From NCBI GenBank assembly GCA_018509705.1, contig GCA_018509705.1_3630.1: DNA of 64,000 nt; one strand, written 5' to 3'. Origin of the DNA: a phage. This document shows positions 21,772-48,950 of this stretch, in pieces. The notes under the pieces are model-generated. The model was given only the letters and a program-made list of their open reading frames with translations. It had not been told where the DNA came from and did not search any database. The position numbers and the translations under genes are program-made. How positions within the stretch are numbered: the first letter of the stretch is position 1; the number at the start of each line of letters is the position of its first letter.

Positions 21772-21800
21772 TTGACTAATAGTATTAGATAATCTATAAT
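21772..21800 (+). promoter_or_regulatory. sigma70-like promoter followed by leader hairpin
   Basis: TTGACT-17nt-TATAAT; hairpin GCTCAC-N8-GTGAGC at 21805-21824 before RBS. Confidence 0.55.
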
Positions 21801-39111: not shown

Positions 39112-39395
39112 TAATGAAAAAGATTAACAGTAGTGAAGTAGAGTTTAAACTTGTCGGAAAAGGCACTTACTGGGAAGTTCGTCAAAAGGTATATTTGTTC
39201 GGTCTTATTCCCTACTGGTCTAAATTCTACTGGGGAGCTAACGAGTTGGGAAGATACGCCACCAAATCAATGGCACTTATTGGTATAGCAGAGTACATTG
39301 CAGCCCGAGACAGGGTTGGAACCACTTATTACTACACTGCTGACGATATTCGTAACAGTGTTTACGTCCCACAACCGCCTGAGGGAGACCGTTGA
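39108..39395 (+). CDS. hypothetical protein
   Basis: ORF track. Confidence 0.4.
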   Translation: MIMKKINSSEVEFKLVGKGTYWEVRQKVYLFGLIPYWSKFYWGANELGRYATKSMALIGIAEYIAARDRVGTTYYYTADDIRNSVYVPQPPEGDR

Positions 39396-39619
39396 TGAAA
39401 GTTAAAGTTTTAGATTCAAGCTTCTATATTGGTCAGGAGCCCTTAGTGGGGAAAGTGTTTACCGCTATCCCTAACGAAGATTATCCTGACCTTTTAAAAA
39501 TAAAAGGTGCAGATCTTATTGCCGCTGGTGCATCTCAGGACTGCTTTGACAGTCAGTGGACCTACAACTTTGCCCTTGGTGAGGATGTAGAGATAGTGGA
39601 GGACGATCATGAAGGTTAA
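39392..39619 (+). CDS. small acidic protein, family-A paralogue
   Basis: MKVKVLDSSFYIGQEPLVGKV...GADLIAAGA. Confidence 0.5.
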   Translation: MMKVKVLDSSFYIGQEPLVGKVFTAIPNEDYPDLLKIKGADLIAAGASQDCFDSQWTYNFALGEDVEIVEDDHEG

Positions 39620-39863
39620 AATTCTTGATTCTAACGTCTACTTGGGACAATCCTTCCTGAAGGGAAAGGTCGTTCCTGCGGTATACTTTGAAGGGTTGCC
39701 GTGGGATGATCCTGTGCGGCAACATCACAGTTATGTAGGCCACAACGTGGTGTTTATCTTGGGATCAGACCTGATCGCTGCTGGTGCACCGGAATATTAT
39801 TTCGGGGAAGAGTCCTATTATGCCTTTGGGGCAGGGTCAGATGCAGATATTGTAGAGCTGTGA
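39609..39863 (+). CDS. small acidic protein, family-A paralogue
   Basis: MKVKILDSNVYLGQSFLKGKV...GSDLIAAGA. Confidence 0.5.
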   Translation: MKVKILDSNVYLGQSFLKGKVVPAVYFEGLPWDDPVRQHHSYVGHNVVFILGSDLIAAGAPEYYFGEESYYAFGAGSDADIVEL

Positions 39864-40274
39864 TTGGTAACCGTTGTGAAAAATAAACTGTTCAAAGTTA
39901 CAATGAAAATTCGCGGAGCTTGGAGCGTAAAGCAAGGGCGTATCCCAGAATTTGAGAAAGACTTCTACGTAGTCTCCACCTCGGAGGAGGCTGCATGCTG
40001 GCAGGCTGGCTATGCCTATGCAAGAACCTGGTACGAAGGATACCAGACCGGGGGATATGACGGAGAAATTATCAGCAAAGGTGTGGAAGAAATTAATGTG
40101 TTGACAAGTGAAAAAGTTTTTGTTATAGTGCACCCAGATTCTAGAGTGAAGCATTACTGGAATGCCAGAACAAAAACTTGGACACCGTTTGCAGATTCTG
40201 CTACACCACTTTTAAACCAGAAAGCTCTTGACTCTGTCCCGAGCTATGGGGTTGTTGAAGAAAAGCTAAACTGA
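39864..40274 (+). CDS. hypothetical protein, family-B paralogue
   Basis: Shares ...HYWNARTKTWTP... with 42081-42476; non-ATG start likely. Confidence 0.45.
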   Translation: MVTVVKNKLFKVTMKIRGAWSVKQGRIPEFEKDFYVVSTSEEAACWQAGYAYARTWYEGYQTGGYDGEIISKGVEEINVLTSEKVFVIVHPDSRVKHYWNARTKTWTPFADSATPLLNQKALDSVPSYGVVEEKLN

Positions 40275-40291
40275 AACGGTGAGGTACTAAC

Positions 40292-40582
40292 ATGATGGAT
40301 TTAGTTCTAGACACTGATAACACCGGAGCGTTTAAAAAGGATGGTGTAACAAGCGTTGACCAATCATTCCCTGCCAAGATTGACTCAAAATGGACCTACA
40401 AGTTTGATGGAGAGATCTTCGCAAATGATGAGAAGGTTGTAGATGCTGCAGCCATTTTGAACGCTCTAGGGTACGACCCTGTGAATTCTTTGATCAAGGA
40501 TCCTGTTGAGTTTGCAGAGTATGTTCGAAAAATGGCAGATCTTGCTGTGGATATTTTAAAAACTATCGACAACAATCTGTAA
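40292..40582 (+). CDS. hypothetical small acidic protein
   Basis: ORF track. Confidence 0.4.
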   Translation: MMDLVLDTDNTGAFKKDGVTSVDQSFPAKIDSKWTYKFDGEIFANDEKVVDAAAILNALGYDPVNSLIKDPVEFAEYVRKMADLAVDILKTIDNNL

Positions 40583-40588
40583 AAACTG

Positions 40589-40617
40589 TTGACACAACGC
40601 TTCAGATTTAGTATCAT
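40589..40617 (+). promoter_or_regulatory. sigma70-like promoter followed by leader hairpin 40626-40646
   Basis: TTGACA-17nt-TATCAT then AGAGGG-TTTGGTT-CCCTCT hairpin. Confidence 0.5.
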
Positions 40618-40664
40618 TGTTTTCAAAGAGGGTTTGGTTCCCTCTTCTTTAAAAGGAACACGTT

Positions 40665-40982
40665 ATGCAAATTGAAATCACTGGCAACGTAGAAATCACT
40701 GAAGGTATGGTGTCTTTCATTTCCCACAAAATGTCTAAGCTGGAGCGTTTGCATCCCTCTGCCAACTATGCACGTGTGAGTGTAAAAGTTGAAAATGATC
40801 ACCAGGAAGTTATGGCGTTCATTTTTGACAATTCTGGAAAAGAAGTTATTGCCAAAGCTAAAGGCAGTGATGCTTACGAGGCAACTGACCGTATGGTAGA
40901 TGTTGCAGCACGTCAACTGGCTAAATGCGGTGGAAAGAAAGGTAAGGGGAAAGGCAAAGTAAAGATTGACTTTAGAGAATGA
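40665..40982 (+). CDS. ribosome hibernation factor homologue (HPF/RaiA/YfiA fold) with Gly/Lys-rich tail
   Basis: MQIEITGNVEITEGM...KLERL...YEATDRMVDVAARQLAK matches HPF/YfiA pattern. Confidence 0.55.
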   Translation: MQIEITGNVEITEGMVSFISHKMSKLERLHPSANYARVSVKVENDHQEVMAFIFDNSGKEVIAKAKGSDAYEATDRMVDVAARQLAKCGGKKGKGKGKVKIDFRE

Positions 40983-40991
40983 GGTGCTACA

Positions 40992-41093
40992 ATGGGTGTG
41001 ATCAAGAAATTAGTCCCAAATGTAGAGATTGCATGCTTTGAAATTATGTTTGCAATCGCAGTTGTAGTTAATGTGTTAGGTTACGGCTATTAA
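40992..41093 (+). CDS. micro-ORF, 33-aa hydrophobic peptide
   Basis: GAGGTG RBS; MGVIKKLVPNVEIACFEIMFAIAVVVNVLGYGY. Confidence 0.3.
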   Translation: MGVIKKLVPNVEIACFEIMFAIAVVVNVLGYGY

Positions 41094-41119
41094 TATCAAA
41101 TAATTGAGGAGACCTCTAA

Positions 41120-41389
41120 ATGAAAATTAAATTATTCAAAACTGAGCTGGCAGACAAAAACTGTGGACTGGTTGAAGGTATGATTGTCGAAGCACAACCA
41201 GTTGACTATATGAAGGTGGTTCGTGATGCCCTGGGTGAAGGTTTTGATCTGATGGAGCCAGCTCTGCGAGAAGATGTTATCGAGATGGCTAAAAAGCACA
41301 CACCTGAAGGCATGGTGGTGTTTGTTGCACCGGGTAACGGAGAAGAGTTGATTGTAACTCCGGATGTGTATGAGATTGTAGAGGAATAA
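41120..41389 (+). CDS. small acidic protein, family-A-like
   Basis: MKIKLFKTEL..., ends EIVEE. Confidence 0.45.
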   Translation: MKIKLFKTELADKNCGLVEGMIVEAQPVDYMKVVRDALGEGFDLMEPALREDVIEMAKKHTPEGMVVFVAPGNGEELIVTPDVYEIVEE

Positions 41390-41480
41390 TCCTGCTTGGA
41401 TTAGCATACTTCCTCGATAAGGAAGGTTTGTAATTATTTGTGGGAAAGGAATCCCAATCTCTTACCAGAGGTGATACTAT

Positions 41481-41744
41481 ATGATTGTTTATTTTAAAAC
41501 TTCAGGTGGATACCCTGATTCTCAAAGCTTGATCGGAAAAACGTGCACAGCATACTCACCTCTTGATGAGGAGGTAGGCGATATTCTACGAAATATGTAT
41601 CGGATTGATCCTCAAGAAGCTTTTGATCAAAACCTTGTATTTGTCAAGGGCTCAGACATGAAGTCTTTGGGAGCATTCCCTGAAGCAGATGATGATGCCG
41701 TTTATTCGTTCATGACCCCTTTTGAAGCTATGGTTGTTGGGTGA
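41481..41744 (+). CDS. small acidic protein, family-A-like
   Basis: ...LVFVKGSDMKSLGA... Confidence 0.45.
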   Translation: MIVYFKTSGGYPDSQSLIGKTCTAYSPLDEEVGDILRNMYRIDPQEAFDQNLVFVKGSDMKSLGAFPEADDDAVYSFMTPFEAMVVG

Positions 41745-41748
41745 TAAT

Positions 41749-42081
41749 ATGAAAGTACGCTTTATTGGTGAAACAATTCCTGTGCATCTCCGGTCGCCTG
41801 AGGATTCTGCAGATCTTGCATCTCAAAAGGCGAGAGGTTATGATAAGAAAGTAACCTCAACTGATGTAGTGCTTGAGGCTACTAGTCTACCTGACCCTGC
41901 TGCATTCTTTAATCATTATGGGTACTATTTCAGCAATCTGATGAATATCGGTGAGCTTGTGTTTATTAGTGGTGGAGAGATTGTTAGCAAGCTTGGCGGC
42001 GATCCGGATGTCTTTCATGAAACCTGTCCTTTTGCATTTGTGGTAGGTTCAGATGTGGAAGTTATTGAGGAGGTGCGGTAA
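41749..42081 (+). CDS. small acidic protein, family-A-like
   Basis: MKVRFIGE..., ends VIEEVR. Confidence 0.45.
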   Translation: MKVRFIGETIPVHLRSPEDSADLASQKARGYDKKVTSTDVVLEATSLPDPAAFFNHYGYYFSNLMNIGELVFISGGEIVSKLGGDPDVFHETCPFAFVVGSDVEVIEEVR

Positions 42082-42476
42082 TGGTAAGCCTATACCGTGT
42101 TGAGTATAGCTCAGATACTGTATACAACGTAAGAAGCAAAGATCGCAGCGACAGAGTGCAAGAAATGTATGTTCTTGCCGACAGTCCGTTATCTGCAGCG
42201 TTCAAGGCAGGGGCTCTTGCATCTCGTTGGAAATTTGAAGGCGGATCTTTCTATGAAGAAACCCTTGAAGATTCTGTTGTTATTTCTTCTGTAGAGGTTT
42301 CAGATGACTACGAAGGGAAAAAGTTCGTAATGCGGCACCCACACAGCAACATTGCGTACTACTGGGATGTTCTGAACAACGAGTGGACCCCAGATCTTCA
42401 GAAGGCTACTGTGCTAACACCGTTTTTGGCAGATAAGTTCCCACCAGAAGGTAATTTATCCGCACTGTTTCAGTAA
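42081..42476 (+). CDS. hypothetical protein, family-B paralogue
   Basis: Shares ...YYWDVLNNEWTP... with 39864-40274. Confidence 0.45.
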   Translation: MVSLYRVEYSSDTVYNVRSKDRSDRVQEMYVLADSPLSAAFKAGALASRWKFEGGSFYEETLEDSVVISSVEVSDDYEGKKFVMRHPHSNIAYYWDVLNNEWTPDLQKATVLTPFLADKFPPEGNLSALFQ

Positions 42477-42494
42477 TTTTCTTGCACACAGGTG

Positions 42495-42525
42495 TTGACA
42501 ACGCCAACCCTGTGTGAAATAATAC
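42495..42525 (+). promoter_or_regulatory. sigma70-like promoter with -35 embedded in inverted repeat
   Basis: CACACAGG-tgTTGACAacgccaac-CCTGTGTG then AATAAT. Confidence 0.45.
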
Positions 42526-42555
42526 CTTCATCTTAACAAGACAGGAGACCGATTG

Positions 42556-42813
42556 ATGAAGATTAAATTGAAAAACCTTGAAACGGCAGAGATTCAGGAC
42601 GGTGTTGATTTCCGTTCTAAAGATGGTGACATCTTAGAGGTAAATATTCCAACCTACGAGCTGATTAAAGGTTTTGGCAACGTTCAGGAAGAGGATATTA
42701 CAGAAATTCTTATGATGTTGATTCTTGACGGAACTGTGTTTGTAGGTGAAGGTGAGAACGCTATTGCAATCCCAGGCCATTTTTATGAAGTAGTTGACGA
42801 AGAGGTGCTGTAA
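42556..42813 (+). CDS. small acidic protein, family-A-like
   Basis: MKIKLKNL..., ends EVVDEEVL. Confidence 0.45.
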   Translation: MKIKLKNLETAEIQDGVDFRSKDGDILEVNIPTYELIKGFGNVQEEDITEILMMLILDGTVFVGEGENAIAIPGHFYEVVDEEVL

Positions 42814-43164
42814 ATGAAAGTAGAAATTACTGGTTTTGATGTTAATGTGGTTCCGGAAGATATTTTAGCTAAACTTCCGGAAGGTTTTGGTAACGGTGTT
42901 GTGGTGGATGCTGTTCCTCCTACTAAAGACATTCTGCTGCAGTATGGTGTAGCAGAGGAAGATGTCGATAAAGTTCTTACAATGATGGCAATCAATCGTG
43001 TTGTCGTTGTTAAAGGTCTCGATAATTTTGAGAGTGATCCACTGATTATTCGTGGAGATGACTACAAAATCATCGATAATGAAGGCCAAGAGTTCTATGA
43101 GCCTTGTGCAGAAGATATTCTTAACTTATTACTGGAAGCAGGCACCGAAGAGGAGGACGAATAA
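42814..43164 (+). CDS. small acidic protein, family-A-like
   Basis: MKVEITGFD..., tail TEEEDE. Confidence 0.45.
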   Translation: MKVEITGFDVNVVPEDILAKLPEGFGNGVVVDAVPPTKDILLQYGVAEEDVDKVLTMMAINRVVVVKGLDNFESDPLIIRGDDYKIIDNEGQEFYEPCAEDILNLLLEAGTEEEDE

Positions 43165-43493
43165 TGAAGATTGACCCGTTACTGAAGGCTCGTGCAGAAA
43201 AAGCGTACACCATTAAGTTGACCAACTTGGTTCCTACTTGTCATCCGGATGTAGGTTGGCCCGAAGGTTTGGTGGAGGGAACTGTAACAGCTGCATACCT
43301 TCCTAACATCAAATACCTCATGGAAATCTTGGAGCTGGATGAGGAAACGGCAGAAGAGTTCCAGTTGGACATGAAACAAAGTGGGACTCTGGTTATTCAC
43401 GGGTGGTACAATACTAAAGATGCAGAAGACCCTCTGGTAACTTCTAATCTGGCATATGAAATCTTAGGGCCTTTGAACCTGGAGGAAGACTAA
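43164..43493 (+). CDS. small acidic protein, family-A-like
   Basis: MKIDPLLK..., tail LNLEED. Confidence 0.4.
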   Translation: MKIDPLLKARAEKAYTIKLTNLVPTCHPDVGWPEGLVEGTVTAAYLPNIKYLMEILELDEETAEEFQLDMKQSGTLVIHGWYNTKDAEDPLVTSNLAYEILGPLNLEED

Positions 43494-43780
43494 TGAAAGA
43501 TCTGGTTAAGATTAAGATTAAAGATACCAATGGAGAACTCAGCCATTTTGGAATTAATGATGGTGACGAGCTGATCGCACACCTGCCTACCAAGGAGGTT
43601 GTAAGCAAAGCAGTTGCCGGAGAAGAAGCTGCAATGCAGGCTGCAGGTGTGGATGAAAACTATGTAGCTATGTGCATGTGCCGAGATCAGGTTGTTCTGT
43701 ATAAAGCGTATCGACCAAACGGAGCCACGGAGTGGCTTGTATTCCGACCCGAAGGATATGAAATCTTAGAGGCACTATGA
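43493..43780 (+). CDS. small protein, family-A-like
   Basis: MKDLVKIKIKD... Confidence 0.4.
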   Translation: MKDLVKIKIKDTNGELSHFGINDGDELIAHLPTKEVVSKAVAGEEAAMQAAGVDENYVAMCMCRDQVVLYKAYRPNGATEWLVFRPEGYEILEAL

Positions 43781-46474: not shown

Positions 46475-47235
46475 CACACAATTAGCTACCCGGCTAAAGT
46501 GCTGGGAGCACCTATAACACATCTTTCAACTAAATTTCCCACCACCACAATCACTTACCTCCCACACATGACTGTTTGCTTGTTTAGTGAGCAGTCATGC
46601 CTTGACATTCTTGCCTATCCTGATAAAATTAAGTTCTTCTCTTTTCTTTTACCGAGTAATTCGGGTTTTCTGTTCTCTTCGGTTTGAAGGGGGTATGGAG
46701 ATACACCTGAGTGAACAGGGTGAACAACCGAACCATTGGCTATGGCATTAGCATGGCGAAGCGGACGGGTGACGAAAGAGGGGCCGGAGGACACCAGTCA
46801 CTGCCATATGATATATGGGTGATAACCTGAAGAATCTGAATAAGTGTTTAAGTACCAGTCAGAGGAAAAGGTGAATGGTAGCTGAAGGGGAGGGGGGTTT
46901 CTTGTATCTTTAATTTGTATATTATGTATACACTTGTAAACCAATTTCATCTGAATCTGTTTACCACACAAAGTGGATAGAGACAAATATTACCTATTAA
47001 ACTTGAATTATTTATAGAAAATACCACAACACCACTTAAGTCTTTGATTTTACACACAAATCCTGCAGATATTCAACCTCCATATTTAACATACTTGTAA
47101 CATATTCCATACTCTACCTGCCTGATCAATTTCCCCAACTACATCCCCCATATTTTCCCTGTCTGTACTACCCCTGCCCCGCCGGGAGTCCCGTCATATC
47201 TGGCTTTCCAGCAAATATCACACCCACAAATATCA

Positions 47236-47290
47236 TTGCCTGAAGAGGGTTTCATCCCATAATACCTGCCTTGCCTGAAGAGGGTTTCAT
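47236..47290. repeat. 20-bp direct repeat x2 (TTGCCTGAAGAGGGTTTCAT), 15-bp spacer
   Basis: Copies at 47236-47255 and 47271-47290. Confidence 0.7.
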
Positions 47291-47957
47291 ACGCCACGTA
47301 AATTTTTTAATTGACCCCTCCCCGCCGCCGGAAAGGTTGGCTTTTCTCGCACAGACCTGAAGAGTCAGCCAGAAATATCTGAATAGGCCCAATTCTACCC
47401 CGATTTTGACCTGACCTACAGGAGCGCTGCCCTGTCAGGAGCCGTAGCGACTGGAGTGCTGCCAGGCGGACGAAATGGGAATACTTCTCATTCTTATAAC
47501 AATTCTCAAATATCGAGGCAGTGAGGCAAATTAATAGGCCAGGCCGTTCACACAGTGGCACAACATTTGCAACCTATCCTGTGGGGATGAATGAGAATAC
47601 CTATCATTGTGAGAACCATTATCATTACGGGCAATTTAACATAATACCCATTATGCGCACCACTGGCGATACATACAGGGATTGATAACATGGGTTACTG
47701 TTTACGCACATAACAATTATATTTCTTACCATTTGTGTGGGATATAGTTAGCAGCCGATAGATTAGATATTAACCTGCAGACTTCTGACCGTCCAGACGT
47801 CTAAACGCCCACACACCAAGGATTATACATACACTCCTGAATGTAAACAGGGCCGCAAAAATGCTACCATACAAGCTTGTAAATTTTTCATGCAGCACTT
47901 GACAAAGAGGAGAAAAACTTGTCTGACATAATGTGACCTAACTGACACAACATGACA

Positions 47958-48048
47958 CTTTTACACACCTATTAGTTTACACACTGGATTGTTTACATTC
48001 CTGATTGTTCACATGCTAACCATTTACATGATTGACTGTTTACACACC
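47958..48048. repeat. Iteron array: six TTTACA/TTCACA-centred repeats with 15-16 bp periodicity
   Basis: Motif recurs at about 47961, 47977, 47993, 48008, 48024, 48040. Confidence 0.6.
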
Positions 48049-48057
48049 GATAATCAG

Positions 48058-48307
48058 CCATGCCATTCGTTTGCATGACAATAATTATACATGACAATAA
48101 TCGCACTGATTATAATTAGCATGACATAATATAAAAGCAGGGCAACTATTAGCAGATCTATAGTTGCCTTGCTTGTCATGTCATGATTAACTAAATACAA
48201 GGCAACTATGATCTGATTAATAGTTTGCAGACAAACTATCACGGGGGTGATGGTTACTGCTTTTATATTATGTCGCGACTCCGTCGCGCCATGCCATTCG
48301 TTTGCAT
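48058..48307. repeat. Composite element: perfect 19-bp direct repeats flanking a 212-bp AT-rich core full of inverted repeats
   Basis: CCATGCCATTCGTTTGCAT at 48058-48076 and 48289-48307; inner palindromes GGCAACTAT-N11-ATAGTTGCC and ACATAATATAAAAGCAG/CTGCTTTTATATTATGT. Confidence 0.6.
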
Positions 48308-48921
48308 AGTTGCCTTATTGTTACAGATAAAATAATTGTATTGTTAATTATTTCTTATCTTTCTATTAGTCATCTAATGATTTCAGTTAATATAGTAACG
48401 TACAGTAAACATTAGACGACTAAAGATTTCTCTGCTTATGGTAACCTAACGTGACAATTCCAGACTGTTTACGAAAAATGTTGACACCTGGGCCGATTTA
48501 TGTTATGCAGTTTACACGAATAATTATTTTATGCAGGTATTGACTATTCCGTTATTCTATGGTTGGAATAAATGCTTAGCAGGCTATAGAATGGCGAGCG
48601 TACGTAAATTCTGAGATCTGGCGGCTATAGTTATACTCGATTTTTCACGTAGAAAACGCTTTTGTAGTTATGTAAGTGTATGACTTATAAAGATTTTTAG
48701 TTGTTGACAAGCTATTGAAGATATGCATCAGGTTAAATTTTGTGCAAATGCTGCATTATGTGCAATTTTGGAAGGAAAAACGTGTAAAAATGGCCCTGCT
48801 ACCACACAATGAAAAATTATGCAATAGTTATTTTATATGTATGTTTGTACAGTGGGGTTAATTGCTGGCTTGTTGATTATTCCATTTGCCAGGCGGGGCC
48901 ATTTGTGGTAGGAAAAGAGGA

Positions 48922-48950
48922 GACAAAAAGAAAGGGGCTTTAAGCCCCTG
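48922..48950 (-). terminator. Rho-independent terminator closing the minus-strand early block
   Basis: AGGGGCTTTAAGCCCCT hairpin followed by T-run on minus strand. Confidence 0.6.

Follow-up and report, generated by a model that had tools for sequence, protein, structure and literature searches.

The HPF gene of the rV5-like coliphages is not a discovery of the present study, being already in GenBank and in the literature (Mizuno et al. 2019). In the rV5 record (NC_011041), it is ORF 144, annotated with similarity to a Klebsiella sigma-54 modulation protein, and the promoter in front of it is designated P144. Kropinski et al. (2013, PMC3606486) described the 33 sigma-70-type promoters of rV5, a block of small ORFs and an adjacent 2.6-kb noncoding region, features that also appear in the DNA analyzed here. 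According to Mizuno et al. (2019, PMC6375957), rV5 and five of its relatives carry HPF, and in their tree the E. coli phage copies fall among the gammaproteobacterial HPFs. In the same study, rV5 HPF was expressed from pBAD24 in E. coli and was found by mass spectrometry in the crude extract and not in purified 70S/100S ribosomes, and the levels of 100S particles were unchanged by its expression. The cells were harvested at an OD of 1, and a cushion of 0.5 M NH4Cl was used to pellet the ribosomes ahead of gradient separation; the authors themselves suggested that the phase of growth or the wash with salt might account for the loss. Mathieu et al. (2020, PMC6969025) noted hpf again in five new phages of the rV5 type, and our literature search found no functional study of a phage HPF later than that of Mizuno et al. 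Because the annotation is as old as the rV5 genome record and a test of the product was published in 2019, the value of re-examining the gene is limited. It shares the real interest of all phage genes that act on the translation machinery, and it bears on a small question, namely how large virulent coliphages handle idle ribosomes.

The window, that is, the whole 64,000-nucleotide stretch of DNA analyzed here, comes from an rV5-like coliphage (genus Vequintavirus) that has 99.7% DNA identity over 2 kb to Escherichia phage WalterGehring. The ORF given in the preliminary description (Table 1) matched exactly in position, strand, ATG start, length of 105 aa and quoted sequence. Its product is identical at 104 of 105 residues (99%) to the rV5 protein (ABI79209, YP_002003641; the "HPF" of Mizuno et al. 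2019), the sole difference being G104 to R. The position of the gene, promoter P144 and the neighboring genes are also the same, and there is essentially no difference from rV5 in this gene. The window represents another isolate of the same phage group. By tblastn, the protein was found at at least 90% identity in 119 GenBank phage records, many of which name it "ribosome hibernation factor", "hpf", "RaiA" or "sigma 54 modulation factor". The MT88400x and OR0625xx records mislabel the gene as "ATP-dependent protease La type I". Also among the matches at this identity were all of the 18 unannotated "Campylobacter phage" records of the MG0656xx series, with C. jejuni given as the host. Two of them shared 98.2% identity over 2 kb with the rV5-like E. 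coli phage studied here, and the records are probably mislabeled or contaminant genomes.

Table 1. Coordinates of the HPF gene, its parts and the adjacent features in the window
Feature	Coordinates	Strand	Description
HPF-family gene	40665..40982	+	105 aa plus stop, ATG start; orthologue of rV5 ORF 144/gp139
S30AE domain part	40665..40931	+	Pfam match over residues 3 to 88; AlphaFold2 secondary structure; rmsd of 0.9 to 1.1 Å to 4hei_A and 6h4n_x
Gly/Lys-rich tail, residues 90 to 105	40932..40979	+	Net charge +5; residues 93 to 105 predicted to be disordered; distal part variable or truncated in relatives
Sigma-70-type promoter, TTGACA-17 nt-TATCAT	40589..40617	+	Consensus match; P144 of the rV5 record (NC_011041)
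Stem of 7 bp with 7-nt loop (AAGAGGG-N7-CCCTCTT)	40626..40646	+	At predicted 5' end of the transcript; lineage specific
Shine-Dalgarno-like AAGGAA	40653..40658	+	Read from the sequence; ends 6 nt 5' of the ATG; equivalent RBS annotated in phage Murica
Second promoter-like site, TTGACT-16-TACAAT with TG	40966..40993	+	Overlaps the 3' end and stop codon of the HPF gene; precedes ORF 40992-41093
Hydrophobic 33-aa ORF directly 3' of the HPF gene	40992-41093	+	ORF 145 as annotated in rV5

The 105-residue protein passed the cutoffs of Pfam PF02482 (Ribosomal_S30AE; 48.3 bits against a cutoff of 23.7) and of the NCBIfam HPF/YfiA family model TIGR00741 (45.9 bits against 40.9). The best NCBIfam model was the E. 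coli-type HPF equivalog NF007780, at 55.8 bits and below its cutoff of 125, and the RaiA/YfiA equivalog NF007654 gave 17.6 bits, also below its cutoff (158). Against the solved structures, phmmer returned E. coli HPF (2rql/6h4n) as the best match over residues 1 to 89, with E values of 5e-12 to 2e-11, and YfiA chains as much weaker matches. No second Pfam domain was found in the protein, nor the C-terminal dimerization domain of the long HPFs, the chain ending at residue 105 in a disordered tail.

[quoted passage not shown] An AlphaFold2 model was built with 18 homologues (mean pLDDT of 84, and about 90 in the domain) and reproduced the pattern, with predicted strands at residues 2 to 7, 33 to 43, 46 to 55 and 60 to 67 and predicted helices at residues 13 to 29 and 70 to 89, the end of the tail being disordered (Table 1). 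When the model was compared with the PDB by Foldseek, the top 37 matches were all HPF, YfiA or pY, the best being V. cholerae HPF (4hei_A, rmsd of 0.9 Å) and E. coli HPF in the 100S ribosome (6h4n_x, 1.1 Å), and the TM score to HPFs was about 0.8. Since the model relies on the alignment, this fold match confirms the homology rather than being independent of it. The phage protein is a true member of the HPF/YfiA (S30AE) family, as had been claimed, with the curated thresholds, the full-length similarity to solved HPFs and the predicted fold all in agreement. Judged from its equivalog score, it is a diverged offshoot of the gammaproteobacterial short HPF and not an equivalog, and its origin is most likely a gammaproteobacterial short HPF that became fixed in the rV5-like coliphages.

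The homologues were sought in two ways. A word-indexed search returned five close relatives only, and an exhaustive HMMER search reached the cellular homologues, with 22 at an E value of 1e-3 or less among 1.84 billion representatives. The phage proteins formed a distinct clade, to which no relative among these representatives was closer than about 45% identity. Among the phage records outside Vequintavirus, the gene was not found, save for a handful of other matches to the E. coli HPF query. The search of the representatives also returned a protein of 1,160 aa (P0006) with eight separate matches to the HPF query, the best over residues 35 to 81, which suggests a tandem array of S30AE-like repeats.

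A sister lineage was found in contigs of 44 to 137 kb (L001 to L004), including E. coli assembly GCA_012894635.1, that are rV5-like and syntenic with the window. Their proteins are 29 to 87% identical to those of the window, and the DNA matches over about a third of the region. The lineage had no representative in the phage collection searched and is apparently uncultured or undescribed; its HPF (P0004) was found only in metagenome and assembly contigs of 124 to 137 kb. This HPF occupies the syntenic position and is 64% identical to that of the window, in the upper middle of the range for the neighboring genes. The gene has thus been retained in synteny in both phage lineages. Between them, pS was 0.78, meaning that synonymous sites are saturated, and pN in the domain was 0.22, giving a pN/pS of about 0.28; because of the saturation, we report pN and pS and not a dN/dS ratio. 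With synonymous sites saturated and a pN of only 0.22, the HPF gene is under strong purifying selection.

These data bear on whether the gene might be a dispensable passenger, a host gene recently captured and without a role in infection. It does sit among many small accessory genes, and its near absence from phage records beyond Vequintavirus, described above, would suit such an origin. Nevertheless, its position is shared by two lineages between which synonymous sites have reached saturation, it was present in all 119 of the related records found, and it has a strong promoter of its own. The identity to enterobacterial HPF is only about 41 to 44%, and the capture from the host was therefore not recent. 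We regard a passenger gene as very improbable.

Positions that contact the ribosome were taken from a 2025 cryo-EM preprint on Gram-negative hibernating ribosomes and were tabulated in the phage protein, in the sister lineage and in 17 bacterial homologues. Eight of the 10 most conserved contact positions are kept (K22, K25, E43, D69, Y71, D75, R83 and K87), and these eight and R28, all nearly invariant among the homologues, are kept in both phage lineages. Four contact positions are altered relative to E. coli HPF, whose K80, K89, T53 and Y30 are represented in the phage protein by V80, G89, F52 and L29. A minority of the 17 bacterial homologues share the change of K80 to V, of K89 to a nonbasic residue and of Y30 to L, and F at position 53 was seen in none of the 17. 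The pattern fits a protein in which ribosome binding persists, though it may have changed in affinity or detail, and does not fit a relic.

The last helix is broken by C88-G89-G90 and is followed by KKGKGKGKVKIDFRE. The Gly/Lys-rich tail noted in the preliminary description is present (GGKKGKGKGKVKIDFRE, net charge of +5); counted over residues 89 to 105, the net charge is likewise +5, and the pI of the whole protein is 9.0. The proximal tail lysines are kept in all relatives. The distal tail is altered by 1-nt indels in a purine run, which give proteins of 101 aa in APECc02 and 99 aa in Murica, and in the sister lineage the tail has a different sequence that is still basic. Because the distal part is not conserved, a specific YfiA-like role for it is unlikely. 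It is plausible that the proximal lysines bind rRNA nonspecifically.

Vacant ribosomes, to which HPF-type factors bind, are few in growing cells, and washing at high salt is the usual way of stripping loosely bound factors. The negative result for ribosome association is not decisive, because the use of exponential-phase cells and of a 0.5 M NH4Cl wash could explain the loss of the protein (Mizuno et al. 2019, PMC6375957); the purifying selection on the contact residues is a further reason not to regard it as final. Taken at face value, the negative test would point instead to a neofunctionalized HPF fold that does not bind ribosomes stably and acts on another RNA, serves as a decoy for a defense sensor or toxin, or sequesters a small molecule. 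The changes at K80, K89, T53 and Y30 and the distinctness of the phage clade are consistent with such a shift. For the sequestering of a small molecule there is a precedent in the Acb4 anti-CBASS sponges, which share a distantly related dsRBD-like fold and show that phages do co-opt folds of this type. As a candidate identity for the protein itself, an Acb4-like sponge was rejected, the fold matches to 9e4w being weak (E value of about 1e-2, TM of 0.48 to 0.51) and far inferior to those to HPF. Loss of ribosome binding is also difficult to reconcile with purifying selection on the very residues through which the family contacts rRNA, and the growth phase and salt wash already offer an explanation for the negative test. 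We therefore consider neofunctionalization unlikely.

The preliminary description had assigned the gene its own promoter and leader hairpin. The promoter is real by consensus, matching at 11 of 12 positions and lying 48 nt upstream of the ORF, and it coincides with the annotated P144 of rV5. The window has 18 near-consensus sigma-70 promoters (at least 11/12), whereas simulations matched for composition gave 1.5 +/- 1.1, and these promoters are oriented as the gene blocks are. Ahead of HPF in sister-lineage contig L001, the extended -35 box AAACTGTTGACACA is conserved, including its upstream extension AAACTG.

The hairpin exists, with a stem of 7 bp that alone has a predicted energy of -9.9 kcal/mol, but it is weak and unconserved. 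The 61-nt leader folds no better than its shuffles (z = -0.33). In the subclade of V18, Murica and A6-1, an uncompensated stem mismatch reduces the stability to -5.0 kcal/mol, and in L001 the hairpin is absent, an insertion of about 26 nt in the window lying in that region of the alignment. With the leader folding no better than shuffles and the stem showing neither conservation nor covariation, a conserved regulatory leader was rejected. A terminator was rejected as well, since the hairpin fell outside the terminator definition used in the scan, and an Rfam search at the hairpin returned no family. The stem lies 1 to 3 nt from the expected transcript start and a similar 5' stem follows at least one other strong promoter (at position 21772); it may stabilize the mRNA.

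The gene belongs to a long plus-strand unit that starts with thymidylate synthase, ribonucleotide reductases, PhoH and a ClpP-like protease and continues with about 50 small genes. It corresponds to unit 82-163 of rV5, and the late structural genes are separate from that unit (Kropinski et al. 2013, PMC3606486). Our literature search found no Vequintavirus transcriptome data, and from the genomic context it is a reasonable inference that HPF is expressed early or in the middle of infection by the host polymerase. The action "late in infection" envisaged in the preliminary description was not borne out, as the gene has a host-type sigma-70 promoter and lies in the nucleotide-metabolism and small-gene unit, not in the late structural unit.

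Several observations were made on the surrounding DNA. The 33-aa ORF that follows HPF is not conserved, the sister lineage having just 84 nt at that place, which is too little room for it. An 89-aa ORF two genes downstream (41120-41389, plus strand) is labeled "sigma 54 modulation factor" in several GenBank records (APECc02 gp082, A6-1 and the MN850xxx series) and was considered as a second HPF gene. It was rejected as such, having no Pfam match and no similarity to HPF, and for the same reasons the label seems to be misplaced. Many of the small acidic proteins encoded on the plus strand at 39392-43780 share MK(V/I)K-type N termini and Y(E/K)I(V/L)(E/D)-type C termini; they gave no Pfam matches, and their shared termini suggest a paralogous family. 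At 46475-48940, between the ends of the convergent plus- and minus-strand blocks of small genes, about 2.4 kb contain no ORF longer than 84 aa. The GC content falls there to 0.34 to 0.36, and there are many short direct and inverted repeats with a CTGTTTACAC-like motif and a near-palindrome at 48135-48174. This stretch corresponds to the "non-coding" region 104013-106618 of rV5 (Kropinski et al. 2013, PMC3606486) and could be an origin, a promoter cluster or a source of noncoding RNAs. On the minus strand at 1913-2725, seven tRNAs were called, namely those for Pro, Met, Thr, Ser, Tyr and Arg and an odd 99-nt call (2158-2256) to which ARAGORN assigned a 4-base anticodon (atcc) and which scored only 35.5 bits with the Rfam tRNA model.

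We next considered what the protein might do during infection. The preliminary description had suggested that it could silence host ribosomes or protect them for use by the phage. The explanation that we prefer, and that we hold to be about evenly balanced between right and wrong, is that it occupies the decoding channel of idle ribosomes independently of RMF in early or mid infection. Unmodified host RNA polymerase would transcribe the gene from the near-consensus sigma-70 promoter at that stage. From the family membership, the predicted fold and the contact residues kept under purifying selection, we infer that the folded domain would bind the 30S decoding channel (A and P sites) of vacant 30S or 70S ribosomes in the manner of cellular HPF/YfiA, and the bound ribosomes would be held idle and protected. 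The flexible polybasic tail may add nonspecific rRNA contacts along the mRNA/E-site channel. A phage-encoded RMF partner was rejected, as a tblastn search of 50,697 phage records with the RMF of E. coli as the query gave nothing, even at an E value of 1 or less. Since there is no phage RMF in these records and no dimerization domain in the protein, hibernating 70S particles would be expected, with 100S dimers formed only with host RMF. Structures of 70S ribosomes that carry HPF in the absence of RMF are on record (2025 cryo-EM preprint on Gram-negative hibernating ribosomes). Against this explanation stand the association test already cited, which is the sole experiment and was negative, the NF007780 score far below the cutoff, and the changes at contact positions K80, K89, T53 and Y30. 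The benefit to the phage is also not obvious, because a factor that blocks initiation would hit phage translation as well.

In an alternative reading, the protein competes against hibernation, either by taking the same site as the host factors or by using its tail to occlude the RMF site as that of YfiA does, so that host RMF and HPF would not lock ribosomes into 100S particles and the ribosomes of starved or stressed hosts would stay quickly available for phage mRNAs. The idea was stated explicitly by Mizuno et al. (2019, PMC6375957), who saw no increase in 100S on expression; they reported no decrease either. The phage protein has about 10 more tail residues than E. coli HPF, and the longer tail of YfiA runs toward the RMF site (2025 cryo-EM preprint). 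The lack of an RMF among the phage records is also compatible with competition. The phage tail is, however, unrelated to that of YfiA in sequence and opposite in charge (+5 compared with about -3), APECc02 and Murica have lost its distal half, which is different in the sister lineage, and the equivalog scores place the protein far nearer to HPF than to RaiA. We consider competition against hibernation possible but rather unlikely. It also requires ribosome binding and differs from RMF-independent occupation of idle ribosomes only in the consequence.

A further and doubtful suggestion is that the protein is not a promoter of hibernation, but an early-expressed, RMF-independent occupant of the decoding site with a polybasic tail, whose real task would be to shield ribosomes during takeover. 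If so, it might block the formation of 100S particles by host RMF and HPF in starved cells, or exclude defense toxins that act at the A site or cleave 16S rRNA, and it would then be a ribosome-directed counterdefense or antidormancy factor.

Among the known systems other than rV5, the long HPFs of Firmicutes, Thermus and others have a homologous N-terminal domain. The phage protein is without their C-terminal dimerization domain, and self-sufficient formation of 100S particles is therefore not expected of it. Two other large myoviruses, Cronobacter phage GAP32 and the Xanthomonas jumbo phage XaC1, also encode an S30AE domain (phrog_8990). These are separate acquisitions. The rV5-type protein has its own PHROG (12469) and matches phrog_8990 only at 1.5e-6, and the HPF of GAP32 has a different place in the published tree (Mizuno et al. 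2019, PMC6375957).

E. coli YfiA/RaiA (protein Y; 1n3g, 4v8i) has the same fold and the same expected binding site and also carries a C-terminal extension, but it is only about 25% identical to the phage protein. The two tails are comparable in reach and unrelated in sequence, that of YfiA being acidic and that of the phage protein polybasic. Because of the equivalog scores, the RefSeq product name "RaiA" fits the phage protein less well than "HPF". E. coli short HPF (YhbH; 2rql, 6h4n, 6y69) has 41 to 44% identity to the phage protein over residues 1 to 87 or 89. It resembles the phage protein in length class and fold and likewise has no C-terminal dimerization domain. Its N terminus is almost identical (MQ(I/L)xITGN(N)VEITE), and the eight kept contact residues listed above are common to both. 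The phage protein differs at the four altered contact positions and in its Gly/Lys-rich extension, the E. coli protein having a pI of 6.5. Whereas E. coli HPF is under the regulation of its host, the phage HPF is expressed from a phage sigma-70 promoter and without a cognate RMF.
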